Shown piece by piece: positions 3,364 to 31,411 of a stretch of 64,000 bases of DNA. The position numbers and the translations under genes are program-made. Source of the DNA: Akkermansiaceae bacterium (GTDB lineage: Bacteria > Verrucomicrobiota > Verrucomicrobiia > Verrucomicrobiales > Akkermansiaceae); assembly GCA_028822935.1 (NCBI GenBank), contig JAPKCM010000021.1, positions 3,509 through 67,508 on the forward strand. Reading direction: 5' to 3'. The notes under the pieces were generated by a model. It was not told the origin of the DNA, searched no databases, and saw only the letters and a program-made list of their open reading frames with translations. Position 1 is the first letter of the stretch, and every line of letters begins with the position of its first letter.

Positions 3364-4085
3364 GGGAGATTTGAGATTTGAACAGGGACATTTGAACGTT
3401 GAAGGGGGGCTTGTGAACTGCAAACTTCCCCTGAAACGGTCCCGAGGAGGGCAAGCATGCGCCCGGTGTTTCCTTTTTCAATGCGATAGGAATAAAATTG
3501 GTCGAGATGAGAGGCTGTGCAGAGGCCTTCATCGTGGTAGTTCGATGCGGGGACGCCTGCTGTGAGCGCTTGTTCGCGGATGGTGGCGGCGAAGTCGATC
3601 TCGTAGTGCGGAGGTCGAATGCAGGGCGCGAGGACGACGGTGAGATCGGCGGGAGAAGTTCCGAAATGATCTCCCATTTTTAAGATGGCGCTGCCGAGGA
3701 TGTTTCCTTCGGTCCCTTTTTTGCCCGAATGGAGGAGGCCCAGGGCGCCAGTGCGGGAGTCAGCGAGGTAGAGGGCTCCACAATCGGCGACATGAATTCC
3801 GAGGAGGCAATCTGCTTTGCTGGTGAGGAGCCCATCGACACCCGGGGTCATGAGCGGGGAGCCCTTTCCGACGATGGCTAAGTCAACTCCGTGGACCTGC
3901 TCGGCGAGGTGGGTTTGCTTGAAACCCAGCGCGTCTGCGGCTGCTTGGTGCGAGGGTCGGAGGAGGGAGAGGGTTTCCTCTTTATCAGTAGAAGTAGGGA
4001 CCTCGGAGACCCTTCCAATAAAGGCGGCGCGCCGCCTTGGATCGGTGAGGAGGGGGGAGAGAAAAGAAAAAGACGCTTTCGTCAT
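3360..4085 (-). CDS. pgeF: YfiH/PgeF (DUF152) laccase-domain, purine nucleoside phosphorylase-like protein
   Basis: 241 aa with HGVD, VADCGALYL, LLHSGKKGT and C-terminal CTASHLDQFYSYRIEKGNTGRML, a pattern typical of the YfiH family. Confidence 0.85.
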   Translation of the reverse strand: MTKASFSFLSPLLTDPRRRAAFIGRVSEVPTSTDKEETLSLLRPSHQAAADALGFKQTHLAEQVHGVDLAIVGKGSPLMTPGVDGLLTSKADCLLGIHVADCGALYLADSRTGALGLLHSGKKGTEGNILGSAILKMGDHFGTSPADLTVVLAPCIRPPHYEIDFAATIREQALTAGVPASNYHDEGLCTASHLDQFYSYRIEKGNTGRMLALLGTVSGEVCSSQAPLQRSNVPVQISNLP

Positions 4086-4147
4086 GGCCGAAGCCTACGA
4101 AAGCGTCTCCTATTAGCCAAGTTTCCTTGGCTAAGGTGGGGAGATTT

Positions 4148-4603
4148 CTAAAAAATTTTGCCAGCCATCGCCTGAGTGGCAACAGCCATTCCGGCGGTCT
4201 CGTTGTCATCAAGCTCGGCCATCGCCGACGAGAGCTCAGTGACGATGTGTCCGCGCATCTTGGCAACAAGCTCGACGCCACCAGAAGTGATGCGAACCAT
4301 AATTTTACGACGGTCCTCAGCAGCGTGGACGCGCTCGACGAACCCAAGCTTCTCAAGCCGGTCGACCAAGCCAGTAGCGGCAGCGGTGGAGTGGCCCATC
4401 TTCTTGGCGATCGCAGACATCGTGAGGTAGTCTTCGCTTGAAAGATACGTCAGGAGGAAAAACTGAGGGAACGAGAGGTTGCCACGATTCAGCTCACTCG
4501 AGAGGTTGAGGATGCAGGAGCGTTGGGTAAAGAGGACAAAGTCCGCAAGGCGGTTATGGTCCACTTGCCCGTTCGCGGACTGATTGATTGGGTTCGTTTT
4601 CAT
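4148..4603 (-). CDS. MarR-family transcriptional regulator
   Basis: 151 aa. Winged-HTH pattern LSFPQFFLLTYL...LTMSAIAKKMGHSTAAATGLVDRLEKLGFVERVHAAEDRRKIMVRIT. Confidence 0.85.
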   Translation of the reverse strand: MKTNPINQSANGQVDHNRLADFVLFTQRSCILNLSSELNRGNLSFPQFFLLTYLSSEDYLTMSAIAKKMGHSTAAATGLVDRLEKLGFVERVHAAEDRRKIMVRITSGGVELVAKMRGHIVTELSSAMAELDDNETAGMAVATQAMAGKIF

Positions 4604-7759: not shown

Positions 7760-7843
7760 GAGAGGGAGCTTGGAGTTGGGGGGGGGAAGTTTGAAGCACG
7801 AAGTTTTTGGGGAAGAGGCGGAGGGCGTTGAACGCTAAAAACA

Positions 7844-7856
7844 CTTGCAATGCAAG
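7844..7856. promoter_or_regulatory. Perfect palindrome CTTGCA-A-TGCAAG, candidate PadR operator
   Basis: 13-bp perfect inverted repeat 25 nt upstream of the preferred padR ATG (7881), in the divergent murI/padR intergenic region. A further CTTGC half-site lies at 7861-7865. Confidence 0.3.
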
Positions 7857-7880
7857 GTAGCTTGCTTTAGATGGTTCTCG

Positions 7881-8225
7881 ATGGGCGATGGTTTTGACAA
7901 CTGGACGGTGCAGCTGCGGAAGGGGATTCTGGAGTTTTGCGTGCTGTCGTCGATTGCCGTGGAAGAGGAAGCTTATGGCTACGAGTTGGTAAAGAAGCTC
8001 GTTAACGCGCCTGGTCTCGATGCCTCTGAGGGGAGCATTTACCCGCTTCTTTCCCGCATGAGGAAGCAGGGGCTGATTCAGTCGAGGCTTGAGGAGAGTG
8101 AAGCGGGCCCCGCCCGCAAATATTATCGGCTCACGAACGCAGGCAAGGCGCGCTCGCTGGCGATGCAATCCTACTACGATGGTCTCACCGATGCGGTGAG
8201 TTCGATTGGTAACCCCACAAAATAA
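7881..8225 (+). CDS. PadR-family transcriptional regulator
   Basis: QLRKGILEFCVLSSI...YGYELVKKL...GSIYPLLSRMRKQGLI...RKYYRLTNAG is the classic PadR winged-HTH pattern. The ORF track starts at TTG 7845; ATG 7881 is preferred. Confidence 0.85.
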   Translation: MGDGFDNWTVQLRKGILEFCVLSSIAVEEEAYGYELVKKLVNAPGLDASEGSIYPLLSRMRKQGLIQSRLEESEAGPARKYYRLTNAGKARSLAMQSYYDGLTDAVSSIGNPTK

Positions 8226-8230
8226 TTTTC

Positions 8231-10822
8231 ATGAATAACGAGGACCCCACCTGGCTGACCGACGAAGCACGCATCGCACTCGATGCCTGGGAGCAGCAGC
8301 ATCGGGGAAGTTGGATGAAAGAGTTCATCGATCCGAAAGAGGTGCGTGCTGATGTGGAGGCGCACCTTTGGCATGCGCGAGGCGAGAGCGAGGAGCCGGT
8401 CACGGTGGATCAGGTGAATGAGGCAATTCAGGAAATGGGCTTTGCTGCGCCGGTGGAGCCATACCCGTTGGTGGAAACGAAGAAAAAATCTCGAATTGGG
8501 AGTTTTCTCGATGAATTGATCACCCATCCTTTCTTTTGGGGAGTCTGGCCCTTGATCGTCGTCTTGGTGGAAATGGCGACGGGACTTCTCGCGGGGATGT
8601 TTTTCGATCCGATCTCCCGGACGCCACAGGCGGTTCTTCTTCTCTCTTTTTGCGTCCTTGGAACCTTGGGGCTGTTGAAAAAACTCAACGAGCAGCGGCC
8701 GGCTTGGCTTTCGATTCTGCGTGGCGCTGGTTTGGTGGTGGCGGGATATTGGAGTCTGCTTCTTCTTCCGGTCCTGGTGATTGGTTTTCTCGGCTACGGG
8801 CTGTGCATCGTCTACACGATCGGGATTGGCTTACTCGCCATTCCTCTTTTTCTGATCTGTATGGCGACGGCTGCTGCGCCTCTCTATCTCTTCTATGGTT
8901 TTCTTCGCTCTACCAATCTTGAGCGTCATCGCGGGCCTTGGCTTATTGGGATGCTTCTGGGACTTGGTCTTTTGCTGATCGTGGAAGGACCGTCTTACGT
9001 CACGCGTTACGCGGTTGCAAAAGAGGATCCGGGTCTTATTCGTAAATTGGGTTCAGAAGAGACGCTTCTCTCGATGTGTTACGAGGGACGGGTGGGAAAA
9101 AAATTCTTCACCGACACCACAGGATTTATTCCAAGTCTGGGAAGTCGCGAGATGTTTTGGGTAGGAGAATCGGTTGATTTGGAGGAGATCGTAAAACGAA
9201 GGGAGCTCTACTACCGCACGACCGGGAAGGCATTCAATGCGCATGATGATGGTGGTGCTTTCCCTGGTTGGTTGCCTGGTGAAAAATGGTTCAGAGGAGT
9301 GACCCTGGATGAAGATCTCGGCGGTGATGGCGTCGCGGGGCGGGTCGCTGATCTCGATCTCTCTGCCTCGCGGCTTGATGCGCATATCGATGCGGCGAGT
9401 CGGCTGGGATATTGGGAGTGGACGATGGAGTTTGGGAACTCCGGTCAGCGGAACAAGGAAGCGCGCATGCAGCTTCTTCTTCCCGCAGACGGAGTCGTTT
9501 CCCGTCTCACTCTCTGGGTCAATGACGAGCCCCAGGAGGCGGCCTTTTCCTCAACTGCAAAAGTGACGAAGGCTTACAAATCGATCGCGGTGCAAGAGCG
9601 TCGCGACCCGGTCCTCGTTCGTTGGGTGGGAGCGGATCGCGTGCTGGTGCAGTGCTTCCCGGTTTTGCCGAACAAGGACATGCGCATTCGGATCGGAATC
9701 ACGGCTCCGCTTGATGCGGAGGGGCGATTTTTTCTTCCTCGGATCATCGAGAAGAATTTTGGCGTTCCGGAGGATCTGGAAAGTTCGCTTTGGATTCAGG
9801 GCGATACCGAAATGTCTCTCGATGGCTTGCAGGGAAAAGGAGCGAAGGGGAAATGGCGTGAGACCCATGGAAAGCTTCCGGCCCGGGAACTGATGGCCCG
9901 CCATACCCACGTGAAATGTGACCTTCCGGAAGAGCCCGCGATGGTCTGGGCGGAAGATCCCTTCGCGGGGAACACGCTGGTTCGAACACGGTTGCCGCTA
10001 AGGTCATCGGAAGCAAAGGATGACCTCGTGATTGTGATTGATGGCTCGAGCTACTTTTCGAAATGGACTGAAACAGCCGATGAAGCGATCGCGGAACTTC
10101 GGGAGGCGGGGCATGGGGTTCGCGTGATTGTCGCGGCACAGGAGAAGATCTTTGAAGATCCTTCCACGCTCACCGCAATCGATTTTGCAGGTGGGCAGGA
10201 TTGTATTTCGGCGCTGGAAGCGGGGTTGAACCTCGCGACCTCGACGGGTTCGCGTCACCTAGTCTGGCTCCATGGCGCTCAACCGGTGACCTTTTCTACC
10301 GAAGAAGGATTTCTTCAGCTTTTGGAACGGAGATTTCATCAAGTCGACTTTAGTGTTGTTGATCTCGAGGGAGGACCGAACCGTCTTCTTGAAAAAGTTT
10401 CCAAGCGGATCGGGATCGCAGGCGCCGCTCGTCCGGTCGAGTTGGAGGAATTGATCCCGGAGTTGAAAGGTATTCTTGAAAGCAACCGGAAACGCTACGA
10501 ATGGAAGAGGCAAGAGGGTGCGCCGGAAGGCGGGAAGCACGTGAGTGATCAACTCGCGCGCTGGCATGCCTGGAAGCAAGTGAAGAAGGCCTCCATCGGT
10601 TCGCCGGATCGAGACAAGCTCGCCAAGCTGGCGGCGAAGTATCAGCTCGTCACGCCGGTAAGTGGAGCAGTGGTCTTGGAAACGAAGGAGGATTACAAGC
10701 GTTTCGGGCTTAAGCAGGTGGATGTGGATACGACTCCATCGGTGCCTGGGATTCCGGAGCCATCGACAGCTCTCCTTGTTCTGATGGGGAGCCTGATGGG
10801 TTGGCGTCGAGCTAGAATTTAA
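8231..10822 (+). CDS. Polytopic membrane protein: HAAS/DUF1700-like N-terminus, about 5-6 TM helices, VIT-like and vWA-like segments, C-terminal PEP-CTERM signal
   Basis: 863 aa, starting 5 nt after padR. Helical N-terminus LTDEARIALDAWEQ...VTVDQVNEAIQEMG. Hydrophobic helices at about residues 98-260. VIT-like ARMQLLLPADGVVSRLTLWVNDEPQEAAFSSTAKVTKAYKSIAVQERRDP...IRIGITAPL. DDLVIVIDGSSYFS resembles a vWA beta1/MIDAS start. The tail VPGIPEPSTALLVLMGSLMGWRRARI is PEP + TM + basic cluster. Confidence 0.75.
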   Translation: MNNEDPTWLTDEARIALDAWEQQHRGSWMKEFIDPKEVRADVEAHLWHARGESEEPVTVDQVNEAIQEMGFAAPVEPYPLVETKKKSRIGSFLDELITHPFFWGVWPLIVVLVEMATGLLAGMFFDPISRTPQAVLLLSFCVLGTLGLLKKLNEQRPAWLSILRGAGLVVAGYWSLLLLPVLVIGFLGYGLCIVYTIGIGLLAIPLFLICMATAAAPLYLFYGFLRSTNLERHRGPWLIGMLLGLGLLLIVEGPSYVTRYAVAKEDPGLIRKLGSEETLLSMCYEGRVGKKFFTDTTGFIPSLGSREMFWVGESVDLEEIVKRRELYYRTTGKAFNAHDDGGAFPGWLPGEKWFRGVTLDEDLGGDGVAGRVADLDLSASRLDAHIDAASRLGYWEWTMEFGNSGQRNKEARMQLLLPADGVVSRLTLWVNDEPQEAAFSSTAKVTKAYKSIAVQERRDPVLVRWVGADRVLVQCFPVLPNKDMRIRIGITAPLDAEGRFFLPRIIEKNFGVPEDLESSLWIQGDTEMSLDGLQGKGAKGKWRETHGKLPARELMARHTHVKCDLPEEPAMVWAEDPFAGNTLVRTRLPLRSSEAKDDLVIVIDGSSYFSKWTETADEAIAELREAGHGVRVIVAAQEKIFEDPSTLTAIDFAGGQDCISALEAGLNLATSTGSRHLVWLHGAQPVTFSTEEGFLQLLERRFHQVDFSVVDLEGGPNRLLEKVSKRIGIAGAARPVELEELIPELKGILESNRKRYEWKRQEGAPEGGKHVSDQLARWHAWKQVKKASIGSPDRDKLAKLAAKYQLVTPVSGAVVLETKEDYKRFGLKQVDVDTTPSVPGIPEPSTALLVLMGSLMGWRRARI

Positions 10823-10834
10823 GAAAAATAAATT

Positions 10835-11032
10835 ATGGGAACTTCTCTCAGCCAGCCGCTCACCTACCTGAGTTTCTTTGGTCTCTTGGTGGCGGGCGCT
10901 CTTTTCTACTTTGGGTGTCGAAAGCGGAGATGGGCGCGGGCGGAATTGATGAGCTTGGCTTTTTTGATTGTGCTGCCATCGCTCTTCTTCACGCTTGCCC
11001 TAAATGCGTGGATCACGGATGACCGTTTTTGA
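10835..11032 (+). CDS. Small two-helix membrane protein; possibly the N-terminal half of a gene split by an in-frame TGA
   Basis: 65 aa with two hydrophobic helices. The stop TGA 11030-11032 is in the same frame as the next ORF (11069). Confidence 0.45.
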   Translation: MGTSLSQPLTYLSFFGLLVAGALFYFGCRKRRWARAELMSLAFLIVLPSLFFTLALNAWITDDRF

Positions 11033-11068
11033 ACCTATCGAAACTTCTACTACGATATCGAAAAAGGG

Positions 11069-11272
11069 ATGAGCCGCGCTGAGGTTCTCGAGGTCATGAA
11101 GGCCAATTACCCTGAAGGAGGGCTGAGGAAAGGGCCCATCGTGAGTCAGGACGAGGAGGAGAGTTTGTCGTTTTTCATGAATCCCGAGGATTCTCGAGAG
11201 CCAAACTGTGAAGGAATTTTTCTCAGTTTGTGGGATGGAAGGGTGATTAGTAAGGGCTACTCGCCTGATTGA
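11069..11272 (+). CDS. Small BamE/SmpA-like domain protein; possibly the C-terminal half of the split gene
   Basis: 67 aa. GMSRAEVLEVMKANYPEGG resembles SmpA/OmlA-type domains. The in-frame read-back across TGA gives DDRF*TYRNFYYDIEKGMSRAEV, which looks continuous. Confidence 0.5.
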   Translation: MSRAEVLEVMKANYPEGGLRKGPIVSQDEEESLSFFMNPEDSREPNCEGIFLSLWDGRVISKGYSPD

Positions 11273-11405: not shown

Positions 11406-11442
11406 AAAAAAAGCCCGGCTGCGTGATGCGACCGGGCTTTTT
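11406..11442. terminator. Bidirectional rho-independent terminator between the convergent 11069..11272 gene and rplI
   Basis: AAAAAA-AGCCCGG (11412-11418), 13-nt loop, CCGGGCT (11432-11438), TTTTT. The A-tract on one side and T-tract on the other serve both strands. Confidence 0.75.
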
Positions 11443-11465: not shown

Positions 11466-11927
11466 TTAAGAAGCCACAGGAGCCTCGACCGTGATGGTCA
11501 GCGAGGTGGTGACGTCAGCGTGAAGCTTGACTTCAACGTCGCTCTTACCAGAGGTCTTGATGGGCTTGTCGAGGAGGATCGCGTGGCGATCGATTACGAT
11601 GCCTTTGGCCTCGAGAGCCTTATGGATGTCGATAGAGGTGACGGAGCCGAAGGCTTTTCCGTTGGCACCGATCTCGAGAGTAAACTTGGGTTTGAGGCGG
11701 GCAATCTTACCAGCGAGGTCCTGAGCGATGGTGAGCTCAGTCGCTTCACGCTTCACGCGGGATTTCTCGAGGTTCTCGATTTGACGAAGGTTTCCCTTGG
11801 TCGCCTCGTAAGCTTTTCCTGATGGGATCAGGAAATTGCGGGCATAGCCTGCCTTTACTTTGACGACTTCAGCTTCGACGCCGAGGCCATTAATTTTTTC
11901 GCGGAGAATTACTTCAGTGGCTGCCAT
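11466..11927 (-). CDS. rplI: 50S ribosomal protein L9
   Basis: VILREKINGLGVEAEVVKVKAGYARNFLIPSGKA is the canonical L9 N-terminus; 153 aa. Confidence 0.95.
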   Translation of the reverse strand: MAATEVILREKINGLGVEAEVVKVKAGYARNFLIPSGKAYEATKGNLRQIENLEKSRVKREATELTIAQDLAGKIARLKPKFTLEIGANGKAFGSVTSIDIHKALEAKGIVIDRHAILLDKPIKTSGKSDVEVKLHADVTTSLTITVEAPVAS

Positions 11928-30154: not shown

Positions 30155-31411
30155 TCAGGCCTTTTGTTTGCGGAAAGCCTTTCGAGCGATCTGAAAAATG
30201 CGGTCCCGGTGCCACCAAGTAAGAAATCCCAAGGCCACTCCGGAGAGGTTCCGGGAGAGATCAACGCCATCCTTCCAATCTAATCCATAGAAGGTGAAGT
30301 GAGCAAGCATTTCGGGAAGTGCGGCAAGAGCCACGACAAAGGGCCAGCTTTTGACGCTTCGTGTGAGGATGAACCAGAACAAGGAAAGCAGCGCAAAGAT
30401 AAGAAAATGGAATCGAGACAAGACGATCATTACTTTTCTGAGCAGTGTGGAGATGACTCCTGAATTCGCTCCCTTCTTAGGAGAGGTGTTCTCTTTTAGA
30501 ATCGGGGTGGGCGCGGATAGCGCATCATTAGGTGACTCACGTTCCGGGAGCGTAGTGTTGCGAGGCTGGTCTTCGGCGGGATCTGACTTTTTAGGGGATG
30601 CAGAGGCTTGAGAAATAGCAGTGTCTAAATCGAGAGATGGGCTTTTGGGAACATCCGGCAGATCGAGGGAAAAGGCGTCAGAGAGAGGCGCGAGTAGAGT
30701 GATGGTTGTGGGAAAGGCTCCTACCCAAAGCAACGAGAGCATCATGAGAGCAGCGCTCGCTGCCCTCACCGGATTACGGACATCGCATTTCCAAAGCAGA
30801 CGGAAGATCAGGCTCAGCCAGCCGAGCGCGAGAGCGATCGAGACGAATCGAACCCAAGAGCGTTCCGCGACTTTCGAAAAGCGAAGGTTCCTAAGGTCAA
30901 GAGATCCGCTTTTTCCTCCGACTGAGAAATAGAAATGAGTGTCTATAATTGCTCCAGTGAGTTTCCTAACCACTTCGAGCTTCGTCCAGTCTTGAGTTCC
31001 GGATCCTTCAAAAAGGACAAAGTCAGAGGGCTGGCGAGAGCTCCCATCTTCCATCTTGTCAGAGAAAATTCCCTTCGCCGTCATCCAGCTTTGTTCTCCG
31101 GGGACAACGTCTTGCCAGCGGTAGTCACAGCTGATGTAGATGAATTGCACATCTTCTAAGTCGTGCAGTATAATCTGGATCGCGGGAGTTCCTTTCTCTC
31201 CCTCTCGCTCGAGGTGGGTCACCGGACCTTCCTCTGTTTCTTGAATTGAGCAGTGCGTCCGCCTGGGCGCGGGGATCGTTTTCAGAAACTTCTCATCAAT
31301 CACCGTCGCATTTAGCGGGTGATCGGAAACCTCGAAGCGATGATTCCACGCCAGAAATGTCGCGAGTGCCAAAAGAACTCCGGTAATCCACGAATTAAAG
31401 AGCCACTTCAC
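30155..31411 (-). CDS. Membrane protein with N-terminal extracytoplasmic domain and C-terminal VanZ-like module
   Basis: N-terminal TM helix, beta-rich domain of about 170 aa, several TM helices, an S/P-rich linker, and a C-terminal FHFLIFALLSLFW...DWKDGVDLSRNLSGVALGFLTWW that resembles VanZ. Confidence 0.55.
   Translation of the reverse strand: MKWLFNSWITGVLLALATFLAWNHRFEVSDHPLNATVIDEKFLKTIPAPRRTHCSIQETEEGPVTHLEREGEKGTPAIQIILHDLEDVQFIYISCDYRWQDVVPGEQSWMTAKGIFSDKMEDGSSRQPSDFVLFEGSGTQDWTKLEVVRKLTGAIIDTHFYFSVGGKSGSLDLRNLRFSKVAERSWVRFVSIALALGWLSLIFRLLWKCDVRNPVRAASAALMMLSLLWVGAFPTTITLLAPLSDAFSLDLPDVPKSPSLDLDTAISQASASPKKSDPAEDQPRNTTLPERESPNDALSAPTPILKENTSPKKGANSGVISTLLRKVMIVLSRFHFLIFALLSLFWFILTRSVKSWPFVVALAALPEMLAHFTFYGLDWKDGVDLSRNLSGVALGFLTWWHRDRIFQIARKAFRKQKA

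Follow-up and report, generated by a model that had tools for sequence, protein, structure and literature searches.

A padR gene and a VIT/vWA membrane protein with a PEP-CTERM tail as a probable autoregulated HAAS-PadR dyad of Verrucomicrobiota

The window analysed here, a stretch of 64,000 nucleotides from contig JAPKCM010000021.1 of an Akkermansiaceae bacterium, contains a padR gene that is followed by a gene for a large membrane protein, referred to below as the sensor protein. A first-pass annotation, read from the letters alone, had listed padR at 7881-8225, a gap of 5 nucleotides (nt), an open reading frame (ORF) of 863 amino acids (aa) and a palindrome at 7844-7856, and all four proved to be real. 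The domain order that it had read by eye, with an N-terminal module, transmembrane (TM) helices, VIT, vWA and PEP-CTERM, is correct as well, the vWA domain being recognized by structure only. The gene pair and its parts are laid out as follows.

7843-7865, plus strand: candidate PadR operator, with a perfect 6-1-6 palindrome core CTTGCA-A-TGCAAG (7844-7856) and a third half-site
7881-8225, plus strand: padR, coding for a single-domain PadR-family winged-helix transcription factor of 114 aa (Pfam)
8231-10822, plus strand: large sensor ORF of 863 aa, starting 5 nt after the padR stop codon
8231-8455, plus strand: N-terminal cytoplasmic three-helix module, probably a divergent HAAS domain, residues 1-75 (AlphaFold2 helices, HAAS matches in the family, co-variation with padR)
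8492-9019, plus strand: five-helix TM domain, residues ~88-263 (hydropathy, positive loops, AlphaFold2 helices, conserved columns)
9353-10000, plus strand: extracytoplasmic beta-rich VIT domain, residues ~375-590 (Pfam VIT, TIGR04477, Foldseek)
10022-10675, plus strand: vWA-like alpha/beta domain, residues ~598-815 (AlphaFold2, Foldseek, column counts)
10742-10822, plus strand: PEP-CTERM sorting signal and stop codon, residues 838-863, made up of VPGIPEPS, a TM helix and RRARI (TIGR02595)

The padR product matches the Pfam model PF03551 with E = 7.9e-21 and 74.3 bits (cutoff 27), which places it in the PadR family, and its top NCBIfam match is TIGR03433 (padR_acidobact), the Acidobacterial type that is partnered with HAAS proteins. 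According to the Pfam scan, its 114 residues include no extra ligand-binding domain. The family of the large protein is extensive, with 264 word-filtered matches, 396 relatives in species-representative genomes (chiefly Verrucomicrobiota among those examined) and 1701 clusters at 50% identity that are conserved over the full length at E <= 1e-30. For the study of synteny, 80 related loci were kept, nearly all labelled Verrucomicrobiota. A PadR ortholog, called at E <= 1e-32 when directly upstream on the same strand, precedes the large gene in 73 of the 80, so that the adjacency which the first-pass annotation had put forward for comparison is indeed conserved in relatives. The commonest estimates of the spacing between both genes are -4, +1 and +18 nt. 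When the neighbouring ORFs were clustered, padR emerged as the sole conserved neighbour, every other cluster being present in at most 15 of the 80 loci. The padR-sensor pair is thus conserved across Verrucomicrobiota. Among homologs of the PadR protein encoded on plasmids, the five closest were examined, and four of them directly precede genes of the DUF1700, DUF1129 or HAAS type.

The palindrome CTTGCAATGCAAG is located exactly at 7844-7856, 24 nt 5' of the padR start codon, and is the single perfect copy in the 64 kb. Its extended form reads ACTTGCAATGCAAG-GTAG-CTTGC, i.e., with a third half-site, and the extended block TGCAAG-GTAG-CTTGC is conserved when the upstream sequences are aligned at the padR start codon. 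Sites that conform to the consensus CCTTGCA-N-TGCAAGG (CCTTGCANTGCAAGG) with at most three mismatches were found in 34 of 74 padR upstream regions, compared with 15 of 1480 control windows, and reside mostly at -27 to -45 relative to padR. In 1.28 Mb of loci, 34 sites with at most two mismatches were counted; 23 of them fall within 130 nt upstream of padR, and six further sites lie 170-570 nt upstream, five of these with a small gene of 124-183 codons in between. The first-pass annotation had proposed the palindrome as a candidate operator, and this proposal gained support from both the conservation and the enrichment of the motif; the segment 7843-7865 may be regarded as a conserved candidate operator of PadR. 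In this context one should recall LltR from Listeria, a PadR protein encoded beside the DUF1700 membrane protein Lmo0600, where the padR-DUF1700 operon is autorepressed 100-150-fold (PMC6624303); by analogy, this precedent supports a model of autoregulation. The palindrome had also been flagged by a scan as a minus-strand terminator. This assignment was rejected: the stem has only 5-6 bp with a loop of 1-3 nt, there is no minus-strand gene upstream, and the element is conserved as a palindrome in the DNA, with a constant spacing to padR.

The sensor protein was modelled with AlphaFold2 from an alignment of 101 homologs, which also served to assess residue conservation (mean predicted local distance difference test, pLDDT, 89.6; predicted template modelling score, pTM, 0.81). 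The model consists of three N-terminal helices, a membrane bundle at residues ~88-263, a helical linker, a beta-rich part at ~375-590, an alpha/beta part at ~598-815, and an end helix at 846-861. Where five to six hydrophobic helices had been read by eye, hydropathy and the model agree on about five TM helices, at roughly residues 100-263, with positively charged loops at residues 147-163 and 226-236. The intramembrane residue E114, an FFDPxP motif and E252 are conserved in this domain, which resembles the TM region of TIGR04477 weakly but colinearly (E = 8e-4). The VIT domain was recognized by Pfam PF08487 at residues 384-488, with 28.8 bits marginally above the cutoff of 26.5, and the VIT region of TIGR04477 matches it with E = 2.3e-25. 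The sensor protein has no Pfam vWA match, although the alternating beta/alpha elements at residues 598-815 of the model form a Rossmann-like vWA fold directly after VIT. In a Foldseek comparison with the PDB, the top structure was inter-alpha-inhibitor heavy chain 1 (ITIH1, 6FPY), with E = 2e-18 over 583 of ~600 columns and extending over both VIT and vWA. The ectodomain thus corresponds to an ITIH/integrin-like VIT+vWA unit, of which the vWA part escapes the sequence models.

The similarity to ITIH1 has its limits, with a sequence identity of 12% and a metal-ion-dependent adhesion site (MIDAS) that departs from the canonical DxSxS...T...D pattern. In the family, D604 and S606 are invariant, which leaves D-x-S only; the third serine varies, and near invariance is seen for D657, H681 and Q684, with D657 at the position of the threonine and H681 at that of the aspartate, an equivalence taken from the alignment and not from coordinates. 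This altered set of residues suggests a family-specific, possibly histidine-containing, metal or ligand site. Other invariant or nearly invariant residues of the vWA-like domain between 604 and 684 are G654-G655 and W679. As judged from the positive loops and the model, the N-terminus would face the cytoplasm, the ectodomain would lie outside, and the chain would return to the cytoplasm with the basic tail that follows the PEP-CTERM helix. This is the orientation that a PEP-CTERM signal requires, and the helix and its basic tail are accordingly predicted on the proper side of the membrane, a point on which the first-pass annotation had staked its proposal.

The tail VPGIPEPSTALLVLMGSLMGWRRARI is composed of IPEPS, 14 hydrophobic residues and RRARI. 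With Pfam PF07589 it reaches 15.7 bits, under the cutoff of 20.7; scanned alone, it scores 17.7 bits with TIGR02595 against a cutoff of 16 and so qualifies as a PEP-CTERM signal. Each of P842, E843 and P844 is conserved in at least 90% of the 101 homologs, and [VI]PEPS is the commonest form of the tail in the family. The profile assignments expected in the first-pass annotation were therefore realized in part: PadR, VIT and TIGR02595 exceed their cutoffs, while vWA has no match in Pfam, the window protein has none to HAAS, and PF07589 stays below threshold. With VIT at 28.8 versus 26.5 bits and the PEP-CTERM values scattered around their cutoffs, one might suspect a product of chance or annotation, in which adjacency, palindrome and tail coincide by accident and the ORF is over-read. 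Such an artefact has a practically negligible probability, being refuted by the conservation data, namely 1701 clusters conserved full-length, synteny in 73 of 80 loci and a strongly enriched motif, together with a confident AlphaFold2 model.

It had been thought remarkable that a polytopic protein should end in a PEP-CTERM signal. This view did not hold, as TIGR04477, TIGR04286 and TIGR02921 are already families of this kind, and VIT/vWA proteins with GlyGly-CTERM, LPXTG or PEP-CTERM tails have been described, the PEP-CTERM ones in Verrucomicrobium (Haft 2011, PMC3237569); the arrangement is not unusual in itself. The top NCBIfam match of the sensor protein is TIGR04477, the VIT protein of the XrtN system, with 137 bits (cutoff 250); TIGR04286 (MSEP-CTERM, XrtK system) matches more weakly, and relatives also match TIGR02921 (PEP_integral). 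Segment scans revealed that the match to TIGR04477 is colinear over the TM region, the VIT domain and a C-terminal QLVTP..VVLE motif. All three families share with the sensor protein the polytopic N-terminus, VIT, a vWA-like region, the motif QLVTPxSGAVVLE and a C-terminal sorting signal. On the other hand, the scores are far under the cutoffs, there is no adjacent exosortase, and a HAAS-like module and padR have been added, so that the sensor protein is a relative of TIGR04477 and not a member.

An exosortase gene was not found in the 64 kb window by a scan of all polytopic ORFs. A phmmer search with the exosortase of a relative designated L093 yielded no homolog, either in the window or among the 73 padR-linked loci. 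L093 (exosortase at 3960-4583) and L072 (12418-13239) both lack HAAS and padR, and in each the exosortase gene overlaps the 3' end of the VIT gene. Their exosortases pass TIGR04178 with 56.6 and 48.5 bits (cutoff 23) and most resemble XrtQ and XrtN; both are below all current NCBIfam subfamily cutoffs (171 bits as compared with 270 for XrtQ). These two loci look like dedicated substrate-exosortase pairs, and the presence of an exosortase beside HAAS-less members argues that the core family is a bona fide exosortase-substrate family. The subfamily of the window has no adjacent exosortase and has gained HAAS and PadR. It could be imagined that here, too, a specialised exosortase of the kind seen in the XrtN, XrtQ and XrtK systems has the large protein as its one dedicated substrate, whose biology would be sorting and attachment, PadR being incidental; the XrtN-type top match, colinear in its TM, VIT and C-terminal regions, and the overlapping exosortase genes of L093 and L072 are in favour of this idea. 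It is nevertheless very unlikely, as no exosortase adjoins the gene in the window or in the 73 padR-linked loci, and the TIGR04477 score of 137 bits is far under 250. Furthermore, the flanks of the relatives encode unrelated PEP-CTERM proteins, which points to a general exosortase with many substrates. From Akkermansia muciniphila, an EpsH-like exosortase gene and 23 PEP-CTERM proteins have been reported.

The part of the sensor protein that would connect it with PadR is the N-terminal module, with helices at residues 11-30, 35-50 and 59-68 (pLDDT ~90 in the AlphaFold2 model). HAAS was described (Ravi et al., mSystems 2024, PMC11237479) as a three-helix module with a GxP kink that always occurs next to a standalone PadR and is attached to the N-terminus of multi-TM sensors. 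The position of the module at residues 1-75, followed by five TM helices, conforms to this architecture. So does its pairing with padR, with a gap of 5 nt in the window, orthologs in 73 of 80 loci and a joint migration of both elements: padR accompanies 73 of 74 module-bearing members and none of 10 module-less ones (Fisher p = 4e-12), the latter being counted only where upstream DNA was present (L007, L009, L072, P0109, P0042, P0087, P0092, P0084, P0095 and P0115). According to a neighbour-joining tree built from the core region, the module changed state about 5-7 times, in at least five independent lineages; its co-occurrence with padR is therefore not a single inherited event. A matched pair illustrates this, P0081 having both module and padR and its nearest relative P0084 neither. 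Such a repeated natural co-loss of module and padR constitutes unusually clean comparative evidence of joint function. Among Pfam families, HAAS (PF22564) is the most frequent and only recurrent match of the family's N-termini (10 of 27, with 13-22 bits and a best E of 1.8e-4), and two accepted HAAS partners of plasmid PadR proteins, L081 and L083, score in the same sub-threshold range with 22 and 17.6 bits. Many relatives have a clear G-x-P after helix 3, in the form of GEP, GPP or GLP. With hhalign, the larger local run against canonical HAAS gave E = 2.2e-4 and a probability of 45%, compared with E = 0.23 for the reversed control. The module is thus a probable, though not proven, divergent HAAS-type partner of PadR, for which context and co-variation are strong and sequence evidence is weak; the first-pass annotation, which had named it a HAAS-type partner, was right to this extent.

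Two observations on individual members may be added. The loci L007 and L016 stem from the same metagenome-assembled genome (MAG), CALGMJ01, and represent two paralogs of the family; L016 carries both HAAS module and padR, L007 lacks both. Upstream of P0109, a HAAS-less member from a Desulfobacterales MAG, a gene for 261 aa at L086 53-838 is separated by a gap of 5 nt; it has no Pfam or NCBIfam family match, and its product may be a different partner protein.

From these elements an autoregulated operon can be proposed, consisting of operator, padR, sensor gene and a small membrane-protein gene, which encodes a HAAS-PadR dyad whose sensor is a VIT/vWA membrane protein and exosortase substrate. 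We regard this interpretation as probable. Several results count against it, apart from the missing exosortase gene in the window. The N-terminus of the window protein gives no Pfam match to HAAS or DUF1700, and all PF22564 matches of the family are under the gathering cutoff (best 22.3 bits, cutoff 27). The hhalign probabilities are moderate, at 12-45%, with an alignment limited to helix 2; the lower end is the 11.6% obtained with four plasmid HAAS partners, and a homolog search with the alignment of four HAAS sequences returned just 8 matches and was unusable. A PDB profile search with the N-terminal alignment gave no meaningful match, and neither this search nor Foldseek against the PDB with the AlphaFold2 model of the isolated module, which returned nothing with E < 1, small helical bundles being poor queries, recovered the DUF1048 structure 2O3L. 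In the window copy, the GxP kink has a loose form (G-FAA-P), and the sigma-70 promoter scan found no sigma-70-like promoter. Finally, L012 keeps a HAAS-like N-terminus and has no padR nearby, as the sole exception of the 74. Upstream of this member (L012 2292-4997), a 429-aa ORF on the opposite strand takes the place of padR, which may be encoded at another site of the same genome.

The PadR family is well known to include direct sensors of small molecules, and one may ask whether the padR product is just a ligand-responsive autorepressor that controls how much of a VIT/vWA PEP-CTERM protein, of surface or adhesin type, is made, the module serving folding, oligomerisation or targeting with no contact to PadR. 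An operator upstream of padR fits simple autoregulation, and the absence of a significant HAAS match in the window N-terminus, along with an uninformative structural search, would be in line with such a plain local repressor. It is judged unlikely, however, given that module and padR are present or absent together in at least five independent lineages (73 of 74 versus 0 of 10), that HAAS is the sole recurrent Pfam match for the module, that HAAS-superfamily genes come directly after four of the five nearest plasmid PadR homologs studied, and that the PadR of 114 aa has no added ligand-binding domain.

The preferred reading, an operon encoding a HAAS-PadR dyad, can be compared with the published systems, including LltR-Lmo0600 from Listeria and the Acidobacterial PadR proteins with FtsX-type permeases. 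In common are the standalone PadR gene for ~110 aa directly upstream of a membrane-protein gene, a pair that moves together, the short three-helix N-terminus in front of multiple TM helices and a sensor part, the autoregulatory operator, which is a prediction here, and the top NCBIfam match of the PadR, TIGR03433. The differences concern the sensor, since the combination of five TM helices, VIT, vWA and PEP-CTERM is absent from the fusions listed by Ravi et al.; neither VIT, vWA, PEP-CTERM nor Verrucomicrobia are mentioned in the paper and its supplement (PMC11237479). Moreover, the HAAS module is divergent and sub-threshold in the present case, and the TM domain is not Pfam HAAS_TM. Literature searches for PadR with PEP-CTERM, and for XrtN or MSEP-CTERM, yielded nothing relevant in the searchable literature. 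The combined architecture had been held to be uncharacterised. This applies to the fusion of HAAS and PadR to the exosortase-substrate VIT family, which was not found in the searchable literature, and it does not apply to the components, as both the HAAS-PadR dyad (mSystems 2024) and polytopic VIT proteins with exosortase tails are already known.

In ITIH proteins the C-terminus is cleaved and ester-linked to a glycan. A C-terminal signal for processing or attachment is a recurrent feature of the bacterial VIT/vWA sorting-signal proteins (Haft 2011), and the sensor protein shares it. Unlike the secreted VIT/vWA proteins, it is anchored by five N-terminal TM helices and not secreted by means of a signal peptide.

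With regard to mechanism, the PadR dimer would bind CCTTGCA-N-TGCAAGG just upstream of its own gene and repress the operon, as suggested by the conservation and position of the motif and by the LltR precedent. The sensor would be an inner-membrane protein with a cytoplasmic HAAS-like module, a five-helix TM bundle and a periplasmic VIT+vWA ectodomain, its PEP-CTERM helix re-entering the membrane such that the basic tail stays in the cytoplasm. A change in the ectodomain, caused either by a ligand or metal at the altered MIDAS-position site or by a shift in C-terminal anchoring, might then be relayed through the TM bundle to the HAAS module. Following the published HAAS-PadR model, this module could capture or release PadR and thereby change transcription. 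The conjectural side of this scheme comprises a physical contact of the HAAS module with PadR, the direction in which it regulates, the kind of signal perceived and any exosortase processing.

A more specific version holds that cleavage or transfer of the PEP-CTERM helix by a general exosortase of the cell would leave the sensor spanning from the inner membrane to its point of attachment, switch the TM bundle and the HAAS module and thus alter PadR activity, so that the operon would monitor sorting capacity or envelope tethering. We consider this version rather improbable. If true, it would be the first regulatory link from exosortase-dependent sorting to gene expression, with a logic comparable to that of envelope-stress sensors that monitor protein export. 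Sorting by exosortase and PEP-CTERM is widespread and poorly understood, and to our knowledge almost nothing is known about its regulation or about the roles of integral-membrane VIT/vWA substrates. What makes the system moderately interesting is that a connection of exosortase sorting with transcription can be put to the test in it. In addition, the family provides a defined and widely conserved handle, in which a transcription factor is combined with a predicted operator and with a sensor that is open to mutation in both ectodomain and sorting tail. It would also carry HAAS-PadR signalling, recently proposed as an alternative to two-component systems, into a new phylum and onto a periplasmic domain for protein interaction.

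Downstream of the sensor gene, two further features delimit the operon.

10835-11272, plus strand: probable third operon gene for a small membrane protein, ~145 codons with an in-frame TGA at 11030-11032 (read-through translation)
11408-11442, no strand assigned: strong hairpin (RNA fold -28.9 kcal/mol, z = -5.2) with an A-run and a T-run on its sides

The third gene starts 12 nt after the stop codon of the sensor gene, and in the window it appears as two small ORFs in the same frame (65 and 67 aa). Their joined translation aligns with intact genes for ~145 aa in L094, a 91% relative, in L010 and in L013, all of which have Arg in place of the TGA; the in-frame TGA is either a nonsense mutation, a sequencing error or a case of read-through. 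The protein has two TM helices and a small domain and gave no family match. In L013 the homolog is located between operator and padR, which indicates that the third gene is probably an accessory member of the operon. The hairpin, missed by the simple terminator scan, is situated between the operon and the convergent rplI gene (11466-11927, minus strand) and is likely a bidirectional intrinsic terminator that closes both.

Another small membrane protein, of 124-164 aa, is encoded between the conserved operator and padR in loci of the Luteolibacter and Haloferula type, resulting in a three-gene operon with a further accessory component. This inserted protein carries the motif SQxWNGWD...EPYTV...YIDHEA.RW..C and is found at L029 9115-9489, L054 5636-6130 and L018 592-984. 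Elsewhere in the window, where an Rfam scan of the 64 kb returned zero RNA families, an ORF of 418 aa without a match in Pfam or NCBIfam occupies 30155-31411 on the minus strand; it encodes an uncharacterised polytopic protein with about ten hydrophobic segments, beside tRNA-synthetase genes.

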